NCBI RefSeq assembly: GCF_013167455.1
Contig: NZ_CP038328.1
DNA from: Escherichia coli O157:H7
GTDB lineage: Bacteria > Pseudomonadota > Gammaproteobacteria > Enterobacterales > Enterobacteriaceae
DNA: 64,000 nt
Direction: 5' to 3' (one strand)
Shown here piece by piece: positions 7,716 to 16,628 of this stretch (positions are counted from its first letter, which is position 1; each line of letters opens with the position of its first letter). The notes beneath the pieces were generated by a model, which was given only the letters and a program-made list of their open reading frames with translations, did not search any database and had not been told where the DNA came from. Made by a program: the position numbers and the translations under genes.

Positions 7716-8378
7716 TCAAACAAAACCAGCCGCCTTCCGGCGCTCGTATTCCTGTTTCAGTAATTCAATTGGCGTTGGCCCTTGCGGGCACTTCGGCGAT
7801 GCGAGTTGTCTCCGGATCGGGGGAATACTCATCCCGTTACCAACTTGCTTTGCCCATTTCGTCAGTTGCCGTTCTGCAAGTCGTTTTAACTCACCTTCCG
7901 TCATCTGCCGCTCAATCCCTCTGTCACGCATCTCGAGGCAAATGTGGTACAGCACCGGCTGTGGCCACGGGTATTTATCACTCCCGTCGTACCGCCAGGA
8001 TTCATTCCTCCAGCGACGGTACTCCTCCATCACGGCATCCACCGTCAGGCCAAATGGATTTGCCCCGCTCTCCGAAATCAACGCCACAAACTCAGCCAGG
8101 TCCGGAGGCCACGTTTCACCCGCCCGGCAGCGGTCCATGCACTGACGGCAGACCTGCCGGATTTGCTGTTCAGTCATCGCGCCAATCTGAGCAATCCAGA
8201 GCTTCGACGGCGCAGCCCCGTTCTTCTGGGTCCAGCGGTTCGAATACACCTCCCCCATAAGTTCCCACAGCTTCCAGGCCGTTTCCGTTGCTGATAAATC
8301 CGTTTTCACGTTCCCACTGTTCACGTGCTGCCCGAATTTCCTGAACTGCCCGTGATGCGGTGCCACCTGGTGCTGCAT
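7716..8378 (-). CDS. Replication protein P-like (lambda P family helicase loader); start uncertain (8378, 8258 or 8177)
   Basis: Aligns by eye to recalled lambda P: ETWPPDLAEFVALI vs PFLPSPGQFVAWC; YPWPQPVLYHICLEMRDRG vs YPWKSNAHYWLVTNLYQNMR; TEGELKRLAERQL vs TDAELRRKAADEL. Confidence 0.6.
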   Translation of the reverse strand: MQHQVAPHHGQFRKFGQHVNSGNVKTDLSATETAWKLWELMGEVYSNRWTQKNGAAPSKLWIAQIGAMTEQQIRQVCRQCMDRCRAGETWPPDLAEFVALISESGANPFGLTVDAVMEEYRRWRNESWRYDGSDKYPWPQPVLYHICLEMRDRGIERQMTEGELKRLAERQLTKWAKQVGNGMSIPPIRRQLASPKCPQGPTPIELLKQEYERRKAAGFV

Positions 8379-9213
8379 GGCTTACCCCCTTGCTGACTGG
8401 TTTTACCTGTGCCCTGACGTGCTGCACGTGACGGGCAAATTTCTGCTCCCACTGAACCTGCGTGAAAACCTTCCCCTCCGCCATCCAGTAATCCCGGAAT
8501 GCGGCAAGCTCAGCAGGTGTAAACTCAGGCTCAGGCAGAGCCATACCCCACAATGCAGCCCGCTGTCGAAAATCCAGCGACGGCCGCCAGACACCAGTCA
8601 TCGGAAATTTCCCGATCGGTTCGCTCAGGCCATCCGGGTATTCAGGTTCTGCTGTCTGCAACGGCGCGCCATTCGACTCACTGGCTGGAGCACTCTCGCG
8701 CATGCGCGCGTTATGTGTGGGGTTTAATTCTTTATCTGTATCTGTATCTGTCGTGACTTGTCGTGACATATGCGTGACGCGTCGTGACTCATCGTGACAA
8801 TCAGTGTTCTGCTCCCGCAGTCTTTCCCGCTCCCGCTGCGCTCTCTTGCGCTCTGCCGGGGATTTTGCGGTTTGCGAAACATTACCGTTATCCTCCTTCA
8901 TCACCTGGCGTTTTTCCCATCCGGAAATAAGATCGCCATCCAGAACTCGCCCCTGCATTGCATGCAAAATTGAATCAATCACGTCTTCCGTCACATCAAG
9001 CGCACTTGCTAAATCTTCCGTCGTGACATCAATGTGACCACGTAGTGACTCGCCGTGACATTTCGTGACATTTCGTGACGCACTCACCAGAAGGTGGATA
9101 TACACCGCCATCACTGTTGCGATTGGCTGTCCTGAGACCCTGGCAATGGTTCGCCATTTGGGATCATTTGGCATGTCATGCCACAATCTGAGCCAGGCAT
9201 TAGCCATACTCAC
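8170..9213 (-). CDS. Replication initiator / replisome organizer (O-like; DnaT-like C-terminal region)
   Basis: 347 aa; N-terminal WLRLWHDMPNDPKWRTIARVSGQP...ISGWEKRQ resembles the phage replisome-organizer N-domain; contains two iteron clusters. Confidence 0.6.
   Translation of the reverse strand: MSMANAWLRLWHDMPNDPKWRTIARVSGQPIATVMAVYIHLLVSASRNVTKCHGESLRGHIDVTTEDLASALDVTEDVIDSILHAMQGRVLDGDLISGWEKRQVMKEDNGNVSQTAKSPAERKRAQRERERLREQNTDCHDESRRVTHMSRQVTTDTDTDKELNPTHNARMRESAPASESNGAPLQTAEPEYPDGLSEPIGKFPMTGVWRPSLDFRQRAALWGMALPEPEFTPAELAAFRDYWMAEGKVFTQVQWEQKFARHVQHVRAQVKPVSKGVSHAAPGGTASRAVQEIRAAREQWERENGFISNGNGLEAVGTYGGGVFEPLDPEERGCAVEALDCSDWRDD
8751..8797. repeat. Iteron cluster A: 5 copies of (T)CGTGAC, preceded by TCTGTA repeats (putative origin inside O-like gene)
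   Basis: TCGTGACttgTCGTGACatatgCGTGACgcgTCGTGACtcaTCGTGAC read directly. Confidence 0.6.
9019..9080. repeat. Iteron cluster B: 6 GTGAC-containing repeats
   Basis: TCGTGACatcaaTGTGACcacgtaGTGACtcgcCGTGACatttCGTGACatttCGTGAC read directly. Confidence 0.55.
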
Positions 9214-9275
9214 CTCATCTGATACCGAACTTTACCCTCGAACATCCGGAAGAAATCCGGCATGAATATTGTTGG

Positions 9276-9701
9276 TCAATGCACGACAACAGCATTACCA
9301 GGCTGACCCCCACTGTTAGTCAGGGTGCCCCAGGCGATCGCCGCTGCGACAAAATCATCCACATCTTTCACCAGCCGATCCCTCCGTTCGACGATCTCAC
9401 GGTAATATTCAGAGCTGTGACTGCGCATACGGGCCACCAGCAGAGGCGGCATTGCCTTTTCGATCGCCGGTAACAGAGCCTGCATTTTTTCAACAGCATC
9501 AGGGGTGTCTTTATCCAGCCAACGGAAAATTTTCTGGGTATTACGAGCCAGGGCTTCCGGATGGCTGTCGTCGTACAGTTCCGGGAACGTCATCCCCAGT
9601 TCGAAATAAGTCCGGGCTATTTCAGCTGCAGGAACTTTCTCACCATCAGGATATGCCCAGGCATTCATCGCCATGCGGATGTGCTCATGTTTGATTTTCA
9701 T
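9276..9701 (-). CDS. YdaT-like protein (CII-like regulator position)
   Basis: 141 aa beginning MKIKHEHI, as recalled for Rac YdaT; follows the Cro-like gene. Confidence 0.55.
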   Translation of the reverse strand: MKIKHEHIRMAMNAWAYPDGEKVPAAEIARTYFELGMTFPELYDDSHPEALARNTQKIFRWLDKDTPDAVEKMQALLPAIEKAMPPLLVARMRSHSSEYYREIVERRDRLVKDVDDFVAAAIAWGTLTNSGGQPGNAVVVH

Positions 9702-10008
9702 GAATCATTTGCCTCTTGATGCTTCGGGTATGATCGTTTTCGTCATTTGGTTGCTTCATCGACATATTCTGCGAATAACATGACGAGCGTCGTAAGTATG
9801 TCCAATCAACATCAGGACGAAGTTCTTCACACAGGACACCACCTTTTGTTGCTCGTTCAATCGCAGGACATCTCTCAGCAGGCAACTGACGTACACCTTT
9901 GATCCATTGATTTACGCTTGGAGGAGATACACCTAAAAGCCTAGCCATTGCTGATTGCCCACCGACAACAGCACAAGCTCGTTTGAATGAATAGTTATCT
10001 TTTTTCAT
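9685..10008 (-). CDS. Cro-like HTH regulator (YdaS-like)
   Basis: MKKDNYSFKRACAVVGGQSAMARLLGVSPPSVNQWIKGVRQLPAERCPAIERATKGGVLCEELRPD; divergent from the repressor gene. Confidence 0.7.
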   Translation of the reverse strand: MKKDNYSFKRACAVVGGQSAMARLLGVSPPSVNQWIKGVRQLPAERCPAIERATKGGVLCEELRPDVDWTYLRRSSCYSQNMSMKQPNDENDHTRSIKRQMIHENQT

Positions 10009-10038
10009 CGAATGAACTCCAAAAAACACACAATAATA

Positions 10039-10104
10039 TTAGGCTTAGCCTAATGCAATTGTCAATAGGCTATGCCTAACGCTTCGAGAGTAGGTATTGC
10101 CTAA
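10039..10104. promoter_or_regulatory. Right operator region: three TTAGGC-N3-GCCTAA-type dyads between divergent cro-like and repressor genes
   Basis: TTAGGCttaGCCTAA (10039-10053), ATAGGCtatGCCTAA (10065-10079), TAGGTattGCCTAA (10090-10104). Confidence 0.6.
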
Positions 10105-10132
10105 TGCGATGCGCATAGGAGACTATTAAGCA

Positions 10133-10609
10133 ATGCTTAGTGGTAAAGACTTAGGCCGAGCGATAGAGCAGGCCATTAACAAAAAAATTGCATCAGGAGC
10201 CGTCAAATCAAAGGCGGAAATCGCACGTCATTTCAAAGTCCAACCACCATCAATCCATGACTGGATTAAGAAAGGTTCGATAAGTAAAGACAAACTTCCA
10301 GAACTATGGCGTTTCTTTTCTGATGTGGTTGGTCCAGAGCATTGGGGGCTTAACGAATACCCCATACCAACCCCATCCACTTCAGATACAAAAAGTGAAC
10401 TTTTAGACATAAACAGCCTTTATCAAGCCGCCTCTGATGAAAAAAGAGCAATTGTGGCTTTCCTCTTATCTGGAAATGCTACGGAGCCTAGTTGGGTTGA
10501 TCATGACGTTCGTGCCTACATTGCCGCAATGGAAATGAAGGTAGCTAACTATCTGAAAAATCAAGAATCAAAACGGAAAAGCCAGAACATCACCAAGACA
10601 GGAACTTAA
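10133..10609 (+). CDS. Prophage repressor, RacR-like (N-terminal XRE-type HTH, no S24 peptidase domain)
   Basis: 158 aa; HTH segment SKAEIARHFKVQPPSIHDWIKKG; same length and divergent arrangement as Rac RacR with ydaS/ydaT. Confidence 0.65.
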   Translation: MLSGKDLGRAIEQAINKKIASGAVKSKAEIARHFKVQPPSIHDWIKKGSISKDKLPELWRFFSDVVGPEHWGLNEYPIPTPSTSDTKSELLDINSLYQAASDEKRAIVAFLLSGNATEPSWVDHDVRAYIAAMEMKVANYLKNQESKRKSQNITKTGT

Positions 10610-10682
10610 ACTTATATGGTCCGACGGGAAATTCCTAGTTCCCGTTAGTTAACTCCTACTACCTCTCCCACAAACCATCACC

Positions 10683-10745
10683 TATTAGGTCGCACCCAAA
10701 TCATTAGGCGTAGCCTATTGACAAGCAATTAGGCATTTCCTATAG
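10683..10745 (+). promoter_or_regulatory. Left operator / pL-like promoter (TTGACA, 17 nt, TATAGT) overlapped by operator half-sites
   Basis: TTGACA at 10716-10721 and TATAGT at 10739-10744 with 17-nt spacer; dyads TTAGGCgtaGCCTAT (10702-10716) and TTAGGCattTCCTAT (10727-10741). Confidence 0.6.
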
Positions 10746-10846
10746 TTTTCCCATACCAACCCATCCCGTCCCACACAATACAGGGCAATACCTAGAGTTA
10801 CCCGGCAGTGGTCAGGGATTAAGTAGCCAGCCCGAGGCGTAAGAAC

Positions 10847-11077
10847 ATGACGGCAGGGTTCAACTTTAACTATGCAGCAGGTTTTTGTTCCGCTACCCCG
10901 GCGTTAAGGGGATATGAGGTCAGCATGGATACTCTTGATCTTGGCAACAACGAATCTCTGGTGTGCGGCGTGTTTCCCAACCAGGACGGCACGTTCACCG
11001 CGATGACGTATACCAAAAGCAAAACGTTTAAAACCGAATCTGGCGCGCGTCGCTGGTTAGCAAGAAACTCTGACTAA
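10847..11077 (+). CDS. Small early-left operon protein (YdaF/YdaG-like?; start may be 10925)
   Basis: ORF-track frame; GAGG-type ribosome-binding sites precede both candidate starts; first gene downstream of the pL-like promoter. Confidence 0.45.
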   Translation: MTAGFNFNYAAGFCSATPALRGYEVSMDTLDLGNNESLVCGVFPNQDGTFTAMTYTKSKTFKTESGARRWLARNSD

Positions 11078-11191
11078 TGAAATCTGGTAATTAAGGAATC
11101 CTCCACGGGGGGAGAGTGGTGCACACGCGCCGGACACAAGCAAGCATCCGGCATGCTCTTTAACAATCTGGATATCCATAACAGTAAAAAT

Positions 11192-11683
11192 CTACAGATT
11201 GCCGTTCAGTTTTCTGGCCAACTCTTCAATAGATGGAGGTGATACGTAATCCGGATTTTTATTCATAAGAAACTGATTTTCACAGTACAGGCACCTGCTT
11301 TTATGAAAAAATTCATATTCTCTAACCGGGAATGGCTGAAGTATCGATACTATCTTTTGTCCAAAACATTTTGGACAAAGATGCATGATTATGCTGCCGC
11401 CGTTCACGGTTACCTCCTTCGAGTACACAAAAGTTCCCGACTCAAGTTGGCTAAGGATATAACCTTCCGTCTGAGCCTCAAAGTTTTCAAATTCTGCAAT
11501 TTTAGCTTTGAGAGAAGCATTTATTTCTTGATAAGTGCCCACCAGCTCAACGAGAGACACGCATTCGCGCTGAATAGATGCAAGCTTTGAGTTCAGTTCA
11601 CCAATAGCCGCATTTACTTCAGCTTGAGTTTTTGCCTCGTTCATTAGTTTTGCAATCTGGGCGGTTTCACGAATAGCCGTCAT
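11192..11683 (-). CDS. Unknown 163-aa protein: N-terminal coiled coil, C-terminal CxxC...CxxC zinc-ribbon-like motif; counter-oriented within early-left operon
   Basis: MTAIRETAQIAKLMNEAKTQAEVNAAIGELNSKLASIQRE...HLCPKCFGQKIV...HKSRCLYCENQF...; start at 11683 avoids overlap with the exonuclease gene; flanked by 13-bp inverted repeats. Confidence 0.5.
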   Translation of the reverse strand: MTAIRETAQIAKLMNEAKTQAEVNAAIGELNSKLASIQRECVSLVELVGTYQEINASLKAKIAEFENFEAQTEGYILSQLESGTFVYSKEVTVNGGSIIMHLCPKCFGQKIVSILQPFPVREYEFFHKSRCLYCENQFLMNKNPDYVSPPSIEELARKLNGNL

Positions 11684-11884
11684 TGCTGCCGTTAATTCAG
11701 CGATCACATTCAATACTCTTATTGTTGTTGGGGATATCCAGATTAACAAGATCCTTGTTGTTGGGGAATAACGGGGACCACCTCGCCTGACGTGGTAAAA
11801 AGCAGGCACACAACACGAAAGCACACGGCGAGGGACACCATTAAATGGTGGCTTAAGCAATCACGCGAAGCGCAATCTGCCATT

Positions 11885-12229
11885 ATGACCGATGAAATCC
11901 CGTTAGATGATGCACTGTTACAATTGCGGGAATTTATCGACGAAAACTCCGGTGAATTTTTTGTTCAGGTCTGGGGAAATGGAGCCAACTTCGACAACAC
12001 GATTTTGCGCCGTTCATACGAACGGCAGGGGATCCCCTGCCCGTGGCGTTACTACAACGATCGCGATGTACGCACAATCGTTGAGCTGGGGAAAGCCATA
12101 GACTTCGATGCCAGAACGGCTATTCCATTCGAAGGTGAGCGCCATAATGCACTTGATGACGCCCGTTACCAGGCAAAATACGTTTCAGTTATCTGGCAAA
12201 AACTGATCCCGAGTCAGGCTGATTTTTAA
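11885..12229 (+). CDS. DEDDh (DnaQ-like) 3'-5' exonuclease
   Basis: VWGNGANFDNTILRR...GERHNALDDARYQAKY resembles DEDD-family exonuclease motifs; start taken at MTDEIPLDD. Confidence 0.6.
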   Translation: MTDEIPLDDALLQLREFIDENSGEFFVQVWGNGANFDNTILRRSYERQGIPCPWRYYNDRDVRTIVELGKAIDFDARTAIPFEGERHNALDDARYQAKYVSVIWQKLIPSQADF

Positions 12230-12290
12230 TGTTCAACCGTCGCCAGTTGTCGTTGATATTCTGCAACTGGCGCGTTCCGGAGTGATAGCC

Positions 12291-12560
12291 ATGAGCGAAC
12301 AGTACCTGATAACGCTCGACGAGTGGAAACCAAAACGGTTCAGTCTCCCAATAACAAACACTACCCTGGTGAAATACGGAAAACTAGGATACATCGTTCC
12401 AAGACCACAAAAAATTCGTGGGCGTTGGCTGATAGATCGCCGAGCAGTATTTGTTGGGCCTGGTGAAACGGGAATTGCGCCGGAAATTCATACTGGCGAT
12501 GATGATGCACTGAAGGAGATTTTAACTCATGTCACCGAGGCCACGAAAAAACAGCACTGA
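12291..12560 (+). CDS. xis: Excisionase (lambda Xis-like)
   Basis: MSEQYLITLDEWKPKRFS...PRPQKIRGRWLIDRRAV parallels recalled lambda Xis (MYLTLQEWNARQRRPRS...); overlaps int start. Confidence 0.7.
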   Translation: MSEQYLITLDEWKPKRFSLPITNTTLVKYGKLGYIVPRPQKIRGRWLIDRRAVFVGPGETGIAPEIHTGDDDALKEILTHVTEATKKQH

Positions 12561-13647
12561 CGTAGCCGGTCTTTACGAAAAGTTTGATCGCAGAACTGGC
12601 AGAGTTTACTACCAGTATAAAAATCCTGTGACTGGAAAATTTCACGGACTCGGAACAGACAAAGGTAAGGCAGAAAAAATCGCTTCCACAGCCAATCAGC
12701 GAATAGCTGCAGCAGAAGCTGAATATTTCATGCGCAAAATTGATGAAAGTCCGTCAGCAACAAAACGTCGGGGTATCAGATTAAAGGCATGGGTTGATCG
12801 ATATCTGAAAATACAGGACACGCGACTGAAAAATGGAGATATTGCAGCTACAACTCACAAAGAAAAAACTCGAATGGCTGCATACCTGGTTTCCCGTCTG
12901 GGAAACCACCCATTGAAAGAACTGGAAGTAAGAGACTTTGCATTAATACTGGATGAGTGGCTGGATAAAGACATGGTCAGTACAGCGAGAGTAAATCGTG
13001 GATTATGGGTTGATATTTATAAAGAAGCACAGCATGCAGGGGAAGTTCCTCCTGGATGGAATCCTCCGGAGGCTACCCGTAAACCGATCCCTAAAGTAAC
13101 CAGAGCCAGGCTCACCATGGAAGACTGGCAAAAAATTTACAATGCAACGCCTGAAAAACACTTTATCCGTAACGCAATGCTTCTTGCGATTGTTACTGGT
13201 CAGCGCCGTGATGACATTTGCCACATGCGTTTTTCAGATGTGTGGAACGAACACTTGCATATCACCCAGGGAAAAACCGGAATGCGTCTGGCGTTACCGC
13301 TTACACTACGCTGTGATGCCATTGGGATAACGTTAAAAGAAGTTATTGATGGGTGCCGAGACAGAATATTAAGTCCATATCTAATCCATAGTCGGCACCA
13401 GAAACAACCGAAGCCGATGAGTAAAGACAACCTGAGCGACTACTTTGCCAAAGCACGGGATCTGGCTGGGGTAATTCCACCAGCAGGAAAAACTCCGCCA
13501 ACATTTCATGAACAACGCTCTCTATCAGAACGGCTGTACCGTGCACAGGGTATCGATACAAAAACATTACTAGGACATAAAGTCCAGGCAACCACCGATC
13601 GCTATAACGATACTCGAGGTCAGGAATGGGTTAAGTTGGTTATTTGA
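12529..13647 (+). CDS. int: Tyrosine integrase (lambda Int family)
   Basis: 372 aa; N-terminal GRVYYQYKNPVTGKFHGLG vs recalled lambda GYYCYRDPRTGKEFGLG; catalytic-region TGQRRDDICHMRFSD, LLGHK, DRYNDTRGQEW. Confidence 0.9.
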   Translation: MSPRPRKNSTDVAGLYEKFDRRTGRVYYQYKNPVTGKFHGLGTDKGKAEKIASTANQRIAAAEAEYFMRKIDESPSATKRRGIRLKAWVDRYLKIQDTRLKNGDIAATTHKEKTRMAAYLVSRLGNHPLKELEVRDFALILDEWLDKDMVSTARVNRGLWVDIYKEAQHAGEVPPGWNPPEATRKPIPKVTRARLTMEDWQKIYNATPEKHFIRNAMLLAIVTGQRRDDICHMRFSDVWNEHLHITQGKTGMRLALPLTLRCDAIGITLKEVIDGCRDRILSPYLIHSRHQKQPKPMSKDNLSDYFAKARDLAGVIPPAGKTPPTFHEQRSLSERLYRAQGIDTKTLLGHKVQATTDRYNDTRGQEWVKLVI

Positions 13648-13697
13648 CAAACACCATATGGAATATCCGTCACCATCTCAGGAAAAAAGTGTTGTAA

Positions 13698-13817
13698 AAT
13701 GCGTGGCCTAGTTTTGGGGAAACGTTTTGGAGAGATTTTGGAGAAAGGAAAAAATTGAATAAATTCAAAATCCTGAAAGTGTCCCGCCTTATGAATAAAA
13801 AGGTGGAACTCGAATGA
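13698..13817 (+). other. Prophage-host junction: arm-type direct repeats TTTTGGAGA x2 and probable att core reconstituting the potB 3' end (stop overlaps potC ATG)
   Basis: Open frame ends TGA overlapping ATG of potC at 13814; TTTTGGAGAgaTTTTGGAGAaa at 13725-13748; no full potB upstream. Confidence 0.4.
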
Positions 13818-14608
13818 TCGGTCGACTGCTTCGCGGCGGTTTTATGACCGCTATCTACGCGTACCTGTATATCCCAATCATTATTTTGATTGTGAACTCC
13901 TTTAACAGCTCGCGCTTTGGCATCAACTGGCAGGGTTTTACCACCAAATGGTATAGCCTGCTGATGAACAACGACAGCCTGTTACAGGCAGCGCAGCATT
14001 CACTAACAATGGCGGTGTTTTCGGCGACGTTTGCTACGCTTATCGGTTCACTGACGGCAGTTGCGCTGTACCGTTATCGCTTTCGTGGTAAGCCGTTCGT
14101 TAGCGGAATGCTGTTTGTGGTGATGATGTCACCAGATATCGTGATGGCGATTTCGCTGCTGGTGCTGTTTATGCTGCTGGGTATTCAGCTTGGCTTCTGG
14201 TCGCTGCTGTTCTCGCATATCACCTTCTGCCTGCCATTTGTGGTGGTGACGGTGTATTCGCGCCTGAAAGGTTTTGACGTGCGGATGCTGGAAGCGGCGA
14301 AAGATCTCGGTGCCAGCGAATTTACCATTCTGCGAAAAATCATTCTGCCACTGGCAATGCCAGCGGTGGCGGCAGGCTGGGTGTTAAGCTTTACCCTGTC
14401 GATGGACGATGTGGTGGTTTCTTCGTTCGTCACCGGGCCGAGTTATGAAATTCTGCCGTTAAAAATTTATTCGATGGTCAAAGTCGGCGTATCGCCGGAA
14501 GTTAACGCGCTGGCAACCATATTACTGGTGCTGTCGCTGGTGATGGTTATTGCCAGCCAGCTTATTGCTCGTGATAAAACGAAAGGTAACACAGGGGACG
14601 TTAAATGA
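13814..14608 (+). CDS. potC: Spermidine/putrescine ABC transporter permease PotC
   Basis: 264-aa polytopic membrane protein; recognised as PotC. Confidence 0.95.
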   Translation: MIGRLLRGGFMTAIYAYLYIPIIILIVNSFNSSRFGINWQGFTTKWYSLLMNNDSLLQAAQHSLTMAVFSATFATLIGSLTAVALYRYRFRGKPFVSGMLFVVMMSPDIVMAISLLVLFMLLGIQLGFWSLLFSHITFCLPFVVVTVYSRLKGFDVRMLEAAKDLGASEFTILRKIILPLAMPAVAAGWVLSFTLSMDDVVVSSFVTGPSYEILPLKIYSMVKVGVSPEVNALATILLVLSLVMVIASQLIARDKTKGNTGDVK

Positions 14609-15651
14609 AAAAATGGTCACGCCACCTGCTCGCGGCGGGTGCTCTGGCACTGGGCATGAGCGCCGCTCACGCCGATGACAACAACACGCTGTATTTCTAC
14701 AACTGGACCGAGTACGTGCCGCCAGGACTGCTTGAACAGTTCACCAAAGAAACCGGTATTAAGGTTATCTATTCGACTTACGAGTCGAACGAAACCATGT
14801 ATGCCAAGCTGAAAACGTACAAAGACGGTGCCTATGACCTGGTGGTTCCTTCAACCTATTACGTCGATAAAATGCGTAAAGAAGGGATGATCCAGAAGAT
14901 CGACAAGTCGAAGTTAACGAACTTCAGCAATCTCGATCCAGACATGCTCAATAAGCCGTTTGACCCGAATAACGATTACTCCATTCCGTATATCTGGGGT
15001 GCGACGGCGATTGGCGTTAACGGTGATGCGGTGGATCCGAAATCTGTCACCAGCTGGGCCGATTTGTGGAAGCCTGAGTACAAAGGCAGCCTGCTGCTGA
15101 CCGACGATGCCCGTGAAGTGTTCCAGATGGCGCTACGTAAGCTGGGCTACTCCGGTAACACCACCGATCCGAAAGAGATTGAAGCTGCATATAACGAGCT
15201 GAAAAAACTGATGCCAAACGTCGCAGCGTTTAACTCCGATAACCCGGCTAACCCGTACATGGAAGGCGAAGTTAACCTCGGCATGATCTGGAACGGTTCT
15301 GCTTTCGTTGCACGCCAGGCGGGTACGCCTATTGACGTGGTGTGGCCGAAAGAAGGCGGCATATTCTGGATGGACAGCCTGGCGATCCCGGCAAATGCCA
15401 AAAACAAAGAAGGCGCGCTGAAATTGATCAACTTCCTGCTGCGCCCGGATGTGGCAAAACAGGTTGCTGAAACTATCGGTTATCCAACGCCAAACCTTGC
15501 GGCGCGTAAGCTGTTAAGTCCAGAAGTGGCGAACGATAAGACGCTCTCCCCGGATGCTGAAACCATTAAAAATGGCGAATGGCAGAATGACGTTGGCGCA
15601 GCCAGCAGCATTTATGAAGAGTATTATCAGAAGCTGAAAGCAGGACGTTAA
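14605..15651 (+). CDS. potD: Spermidine/putrescine periplasmic binding protein PotD
   Basis: 348 aa with signal peptide; recognised as PotD. Confidence 0.95.
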   Translation: MKKWSRHLLAAGALALGMSAAHADDNNTLYFYNWTEYVPPGLLEQFTKETGIKVIYSTYESNETMYAKLKTYKDGAYDLVVPSTYYVDKMRKEGMIQKIDKSKLTNFSNLDPDMLNKPFDPNNDYSIPYIWGATAIGVNGDAVDPKSVTSWADLWKPEYKGSLLLTDDAREVFQMALRKLGYSGNTTDPKEIEAAYNELKKLMPNVAAFNSDNPANPYMEGEVNLGMIWNGSAFVARQAGTPIDVVWPKEGGIFWMDSLAIPANAKNKEGALKLINFLLRPDVAKQVAETIGYPTPNLAARKLLSPEVANDKTLSPDAETIKNGEWQNDVGAASSIYEEYYQKLKAGR

Positions 15652-15660
15652 TTCAGCAAG

Positions 15661-15692
15661 CGGGCGGTGGTATTACCGCCCGTTTTTTAGTT
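15661..15692 (+). terminator. potD intrinsic terminator
   Basis: GCGGGCGGTGGTATTACCGCCCG followed by TTTTTT. Confidence 0.7.
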
Positions 15693-15751
15693 AGCAAGGA
15701 TGTGGCTAATGAGTCAGGACAGTAAAGTTTTATCCCGCTCTTTCGTCGGTA

Positions 15752-15800
15752 TTGTGGTCCGCTTGTAGGCCTGATAAGCGTAGCGCATCAGGCAATGCTT
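15752..15800. repeat. REP element
   Basis: GCCTGATAAGCGTAGCGCATCAGGC palindromic unit. Confidence 0.7.
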
Positions 15801-15806
15801 CCTGCT

Positions 15807-16628
15807 TTATAATCCCTTCAGCAACTTTTCAACAAATTCTGGCACCACCTGGCTTGCCGGGCCGTAATATTTCTCGGCAAATTCATTACCGACCTGACTT
15901 GGTTCAAGATTCAGCTCCACGGTGTGCGCGCCATGCAGTTTCGCTTCGTGAACAAACCCAGCCGCCGGATAAACATGCCCGGAAGTACCAATGGCAATGA
16001 AAATATCGGCCATCGACAACGCCATATAAATTTCATCCATGCCGAGTGGCATTTCGCCAAACCATACTACGTGTGGGCGCAAGGGGGCCGGGAACTGGCA
16101 GCAATGGCATTTATCTTCTGGGGTAACGTCTCCGGTCCAGTCGAGAACCTGACCACTTTGTGAACAACGAACTTTCAGCAGTTCCCCATGCATATGAATC
16201 ACATTGGTATTACCTGCGCGTTCATGCAGGTTGTCTATATTCTGCGTCACCAGCAAAAAGCGATCGCCGAGAGCATCTTGCAGTTTAGCCAGCGCAAGAT
16301 GCGCGGCGTTAGGCTGAATTTCTGGCTGCTGCAGCTGTCGACGACGGGCGTTATAAAACGCTTGCACCAGTTCAGGATCGCGATCGAAACCTTCCGGCGT
16401 TGCCACATCTTCAACCCGATGTTCTTCCCACAGGCCATCTGCGGCGCGAAAGGTACGAATACCTGATTCCGCAGAAATTCCTGCCCCTGTCAGTACGAGT
16501 ACTCTTGGTTTTTCCATTGCTTCCGGCACCACTTTATCTCTGAAAAAAATACGCTGACGCAAACGCTCGCGCAGGCGGCGTTTATTTTTACGAAAACGAC
16601 TTAACCGATGACCCCGACGCGACAGCAT
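15807..16628 (-). CDS. cobB: NAD-dependent protein deacylase CobB (sirtuin)
   Basis: 273 aa; Sir2 motifs [14 protein letters not shown]; ends ...EKLLKGL, about 6 residues shorter than the K-12 protein as I recall it. Confidence 0.9.

Follow-up and report, generated by a model that had tools for sequence, protein, structure and literature searches.

A cobB stop codon in Escherichia coli O157:H7 that is very probably ancestral to the longer K-12 reading frame

Why cobB in a genome of Escherichia coli O157:H7 should end six codons short of its K-12 counterpart is the question raised by this locus. The gene lies in a stretch of 64,000 nucleotides (the window), and its 3' end is defined by three features.

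15807..16628, minus strand: cobB coding sequence, 273 codons plus TAA, 822 nt, from the open reading frame list.
15807..15809, minus strand: TAA stop of cobB; the T at 15809 is the polymorphic base, absent in K-12-type alleles, as placed by alignment and allele counts.
15788..15806, minus strand: bases 3' of the cobB stop, untranslated in the window; the homologous bases of K-12-type alleles encode KAGSIA plus TGA (the TGA corresponding to window 15790-15788).

How the two forms differ is simple. The window open reading frame translates to 273 amino acids ending ...EKLLKGL, followed by TAA, as the sequence-only reading had described, and the minus strand at the end of cobB (GGATTATAAAGCAGGAAGCATTGCCTGA) runs GAA AAG TTG CTG AAG GGA TTA TAA AGC AGG AAG CAT TGC CTG A. 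In K-12 (strain C3026), cobB is annotated as 840 nt encoding 279 amino acids (WP_000952737.1), and its end, GGATTA-AAAGCGGGAAGCATTGCC followed by TGA, gives ...KGLKAGSIA when aligned with the window. E. coli CobB chains in the PDB (6RXJ and relatives) have the same ending, and the K-12 C terminus given in the sequence-only reading was thus correct. In the alignment, K-12 is gapped by one base opposite the T of the window TAA (GGATTA[T]AAAGC, where T is window 15809), and removal of that one T does restore KAGSIA and then TGA, as had been proposed. Indeed, the exact window sequence minus the T occurs in four genomes, and the three of these that were examined all carry the 279-amino-acid WP_000952737.1. 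The window-minus-T 35-mer is found in only those four genomes because K-12 reads GCGGG rather than the GCAGG of the window just downstream, a K-12-specific single-nucleotide polymorphism (SNP) 5 nt 3' of the deletion.

Whether the shorter gene is damaged was addressed by comparison with annotation and protein families. The window protein is 100% identical to K-12 CobB residues 1-273 over 273 amino acids, and strain 2017C-4109 has identical DNA, annotated as cobB (WP_000952736.1) without a pseudogene flag. Moreover, the 822-nt gene carrying the T was annotated by PGAP as intact cobB in eight of eight records examined, its products being WP_000952736.1, WP_000952746.1, and WP_000952755.1, the first of which accounted for five of the eight, including the O157-type strain 2017C-4109. 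The NCBIfam equivalog NF001755 (cut-off, 318 bits) scores the 273-amino-acid form at 597.9 bits and the 279-amino-acid form at 599.8 bits, and residues 1-272 of window CobB fall on profile positions 1-272 of 278, so that the window protein belongs to the equivalog. The Pfam SIR2 domain (PF02146) is complete in both forms; in window CobB, the whole profile (positions 1-180 of 180) aligns with residues 48-221 (E = 4e-54). Residue Met38 (MEKPRVLVL...) inside window CobB corresponds to the start of the short isoform described for Salmonella and E. coli in PMC8603916. Judged by its sequence, window cobB is an intact Sir2-family NAD+-dependent protein deacylase gene encoding the long isoform.

How common the T is was determined in 5,426 complete E. 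coli genomes from RefSeq. Probes of 32 nt ending in ...AAAGC were used with exact 28-mer seeding, such that every 28-nt megablast seed had to span the indel. The first two probes left approximately 746 genomes unmatched. In the five of these that were sampled, Gly272 was encoded by GGC in place of GGA, a synonymous difference, and 702 of the unmatched genomes were then assigned with a third probe. Three alleles were thereby counted.

GGATTATAAAGC: 273 amino acids, 2,973 genomes.
GGCTTATAAAGC: synonymous Gly272 variant, 273 amino acids, 702 genomes.
GGATTAAAAGC: K-12 form, 279 amino acids, 1,707 genomes.

The T is therefore carried by 3,675 genomes (67.7%) and the K-12 form by 1,707 (31.5%), with 5,382 classified and 44 unclassified; these percentages are not population frequencies because complete RefSeq genomes are biased toward O157:H7 and toward K-12 and B laboratory derivatives, of which there are many. 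The spread of the alleles across phylogroups was read from strain names. The T is found in very different backgrounds (O157:H7, O55:H7, O104:H4, O111:H8, and ST131), and among the strains with the deletion are K-12 derivatives, HB101, MC4100, and BLR(DE3). Natural allelic variation, one of the two explanations that the sequence-only reading had offered, is thus what the genomes contain. Single-base indels beside runs of A are a common class of error, and the extra T might have been an artifact of sequencing or assembly. However, 1,852 independent complete genomes contain the exact window 35-mer, and several O157:H7-type assemblies match the 349-bp window region at 100%. Because many independent assemblies share the base, we consider an error practically excluded.

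Which of the two states is ancestral is a separate matter. Set against K-12 alone, the window is one base longer here and its reading frame is shorter, and the other explanation offered earlier was that the window lineage had gained a 1-nt insertion next to a REP element, creating a premature stop and a CobB short by six residues. To polarize the change, window CobB was searched against one genome per species (GTDB r220 representatives), and each of the best 80 loci, from Enterobacteriaceae, was translated from the start of the match to the first stop. CobB was exactly 273 amino acids in 68 of these 80 loci, and 74 of the 80 ended in ...KGL followed by a stop, which is to say that the C terminus of window CobB lies where that of its orthologs does. 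Reference CobB proteins ending at KGL had been named in advance as the observation that would count against an early stop, and such proteins proved to be numerous. Loci with this ending among the best 80 include Salmonella enterica subsp. arizonae and diarizonae and many from Citrobacter, Enterobacter, Kosakonia, Cedecea, and Trabulsiella. Closer relatives resemble the window more extensively still, as GGxTTA-TAA-A.. followed by the window-type REP was found in E. albertii, E. whittamii, and three more Escherichia representatives, and in E. albertii the sequence after the stop is exactly that of the window (AGCAGGAAGCATTGCCTGATGCGCTACGC).

An insertion in the window lineage accounts poorly for these observations. 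The same stop occurs at the same codon in every other Escherichia representative examined, nearly all of the best 80 Enterobacteriaceae loci end in ...KGL, and the orthology of the outgroup genes is backed by shared nagK-cobB-...-potD synteny. Moreover, 67.7% of E. coli genomes have the T, and the cobB haplotypes that carry it are very divergent; an insertion would have to have been repeated independently in all of them. Insertion of a T in the O157 lineage was rejected by the outgroup comparison, and we regard it as very improbable. The stop after Leu273 is found in related species and the same REP in Escherichia representatives; therefore, both predate E. coli. We conclude that the window very probably carries the ancestral, majority allele of cobB, encoding a complete 273-amino-acid CobB, and that the K-12 allele was derived from it by loss of the T. 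The earlier statement that cobB ends about six codons early was right as to length (273 versus 279 amino acids) but reversed as to polarity, as KGL-TAA is the ancestral and majority state, both in Escherichia and throughout Enterobacteriaceae, and K-12 lost a base where an insertion had been suggested, the outgroups carrying TAA after KGL. The window stop is at the consensus position of the orthologs and not upstream of it, as would be expected of a truncated gene or pseudogene. Thus, window cobB is normal and intact, and no annotation flag is needed.

How the K-12 tail arose can be reconstructed in three steps. Ancestrally, a TAA directly after Leu273 (...LLKGL) ended translation. In the K-12 lineage, the T of that TAA was lost, such that TTA-TAA-AGC became TTA-AAA-GC and the stop was destroyed. 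Ribosomes on K-12-type messages then read six codons of the former 3' untranslated region (UTR), KAGSIA, before reaching a TGA inside the REP stem. The last six residues of K-12 CobB are accordingly a recent addition taken from the former 3' UTR and the edge of the REP. To our knowledge, nearly every biochemical and crystallographic study of E. coli CobB has used the K-12 form. K-12 should not be taken as the ancestral reference, as K-12 is the mutant here.

The loss appears to have happened more than once. Strains SZQ1 and FCI51 carry the 279-amino-acid allele on the O111:H8 haplotype, from which they have one difference in 860 nt, namely, that T, whereas their cobB haplotype has 20 differences from K-12. 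Because the haplotype is otherwise identical to that of O111:H8 and 20 differences away from K-12, the T of the cobB stop was probably deleted at least twice, and independent loss is the simplest reading. Import of the deletion into SZQ1 and FCI51 by recombination from a K-12-type donor is unlikely, as both strains lack the K-12 SNP 5 nt downstream of the deletion and are of the O111:H8 type over the remainder of the 860-nt haplotype. AW1.7, by comparison, has the K-12-type haplotype and an extra SNP.

The REP element beside the cobB stop, which the sequence-only reading had mentioned, is real and multicopy.

15769..15793, minus strand: REP-type palindrome, GCCTGATGCGCTACGCTTATCAGGC, 25 nt, its stem starting 13 nt after the TAA; defined by exact location, hairpin, and copy number.

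A hairpin with an 8+2-bp stem forms at 15769-15793 in both the minimum free energy and the centroid structures, although the 76-nt fold was no more stable than those of shuffled sequences (z = -0.10, not significant). A 349-nt query containing the REP matched 4 to 33 places per E. coli genome (median, 13), and segment 15765-15796 was the source of the median of 13 matching places, including those in an unrelated record (H40). By contrast, 32- to 35-mers confined to cobB matched one place in all but one genome. Within the 64-kb window, the REP was found in one copy at three or fewer mismatches. The assignment to the REP type is made because the sequence is palindromic and repeated and not on account of the z-score. 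The element is extragenic in the window, beginning 13 nt past the stop, while in K-12 the stem shares bases with the last codon and the TGA. We note that Rfam naRNA4 gives a weak, subthreshold match to window 15768-15814 on the plus strand (19.1 bits versus a gathering threshold of 59.5; E = 0.68). A match of this kind over the REP would fit REP-like sequence rather than membership in naRNA4.

Whether the six-residue tail contributes to CobB function can be considered from structures. Window CobB residues 39-273 are identical to crystallized E. coli CobB. When K-12 CobB is aligned with archaeal Sir2 structures, the match runs no farther than residue 273, and in 1S5P, the first CobB crystal structure, the chain ends at residue 274. 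In Salmonella, both the 273-amino-acid long isoform of CobB and a 236-amino-acid isoform are reported to be active (Tucker and Escalante-Semerena 2010, as cited in PMC8603916). NAD+-dependent deacylase activity is expected of the 273-amino-acid E. coli form given its identity to K-12 CobB 1-273 and the active 273-amino-acid Salmonella isoform. The base difference, the frequency of the T, the polarity, and the identity of the remaining protein come directly from the comparisons made here. As to function, we infer that the tail has no catalytic role, that the two alleles are functionally equivalent, and that window CobB is fully functional. The cobB difference is real but ordinary, and it matters little.

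Alternatively, the indel might not be neutral. According to Liang, Rudd and Deutscher (2015), as cited in PMC12306157, terminating ribosomes stall where a REP lies no more than 15 nt from the stop codon, and translation is lowered; the interval between the window TAA (15807) and the start of the stem (15793) is 13 nt, inside the distance given in PMC12306157. In K-12, stop and stem overlap. A stop that lies within the REP stem instead of 13 nt ahead of it could change stalling and with it CobB abundance between K-12-type strains and others, or the KAGSIA tail could alter protein stability, and the same deletion did arise at least twice (SZQ1/FCI51). Two occurrences among thousands of genomes nevertheless fit neutral recurrent mutation, and both alleles lie inside the reported class of 15 nt or less, such that the effect on each may be equal. 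Because both are in the reported range, the hypothesis that CobB output differs is a weak one, and we think a nonneutral indel unlikely. There is, likewise, a small chance that K-12 CobB, with a lineage-specific tail that came from a lost stop and was read into a REP, owes to a deletion of at least two origins a change in REP-dependent stalling and in CobB abundance. If so, K-12-type strains would differ in their acetylome from most E. coli. Either way, the two cobB alleles are a natural pair for testing the effect of stop position relative to a REP hairpin on protein output.

The DNA beyond the REP also differs from that of K-12, and two further features lie there.

15709..15768, plus strand: 5' remnant of ymfA, ATG plus 18 codons and then TAG, from the sequence and blastn against the K-12 locus.
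15658..15685, plus strand: intrinsic terminator of potD in the cobB-potD spacer, from a terminator scan.

The potD open reading frame (14605..15651) is convergent with cobB across a spacer of 155 nt, whereas the annotated K-12 gene order is cobB-ycfZ-ymfA-potD. By blastn, a deletion of about 1.29 kb (1,291 bp) removed ycfZ and most of ymfA, with positions 1965-3255 of the K-12 locus (L004) missing from the window and a junction at about 15752-15757, just past the REP. The loss of ycfZ-ymfA is a secondary deletion, because the window keeps the start codon of ymfA (ATG at 15709) with about 15 of its codons. The window junction between cobB and potD is found in approximately 572 of 5,426 complete E. 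coli genomes and in the representative of Escherichia sp. E1V33. Elsewhere, cobB and potD are direct neighbors without ycfZ-ymfA in Citrobacter and Salmonella (loci L011-L034), and ycfZ and ymfA are each found in only 4 of the best 80 loci, all of them Escherichia representatives (compared with L005, L008, and L004). Because among the best 80 loci these genes occur only in Escherichia and are missing from Citrobacter and Salmonella, ycfZ-ymfA looks like an insertion in the Escherichia lineage, apparently lost again later in the O157 lineage.

Farther out, window positions 1-13792 depart from strain 2017C-4109, which has potB there. The window instead has the end of a prophage with an integrase (open reading frame 12529..13647, plus strand), an excisionase, and a 3'-5' exonuclease, next to potC, and O157:H7 strains such as 86-24, PA20, and FDAARGOS_293 share the junction between prophage and potC at 100% identity. 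The element is a lambdoid prophage, and it sits at the potB/potC boundary. Outside the window, the annotation table of 2017C-4109 lists a small integrase-bearing island next to roxA (L090 21353-30301) with Icd-like proteins, a RepA-family helicase, PerC, a major capsid protein, and a head decoration protein. That island, known from annotation alone, may resemble a P4-like or capsid-forming satellite.

How this locus compares with known systems differs with the system. Like the REPs near stop codons studied by Liang, Rudd and Deutscher (2015), as that class is summarized in PMC12306157, the window element is a multicopy palindrome placed 13 nt past a stop; the likeness is one of position only, and an effect on cobB translation is putative. 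REPs seldom overlap coding regions according to PMC12306157, and the REP in K-12, which is partly coding, is unusual in that respect. The long isoform of Salmonella enterica CobB is likewise 273 amino acids, and in subsp. diarizonae and arizonae it ends in ...LLKGL-stop at the same position. It differs from window CobB in having about 90% protein identity, a TAG stop, and no E. coli-type REP next to it. K-12 CobB (279 amino acids; WP_000952737.1; PDB 1S5P and 6RXJ-6RXS) is the closest comparison, with residues 1-273 that are 100% identical, the same flanking nagK, and the same REP downstream. Unlike the window, K-12 is without the T of TAA, has a KAGSIA tail that runs to a TGA inside the REP stem, and keeps ycfZ-ymfA between cobB and potD.
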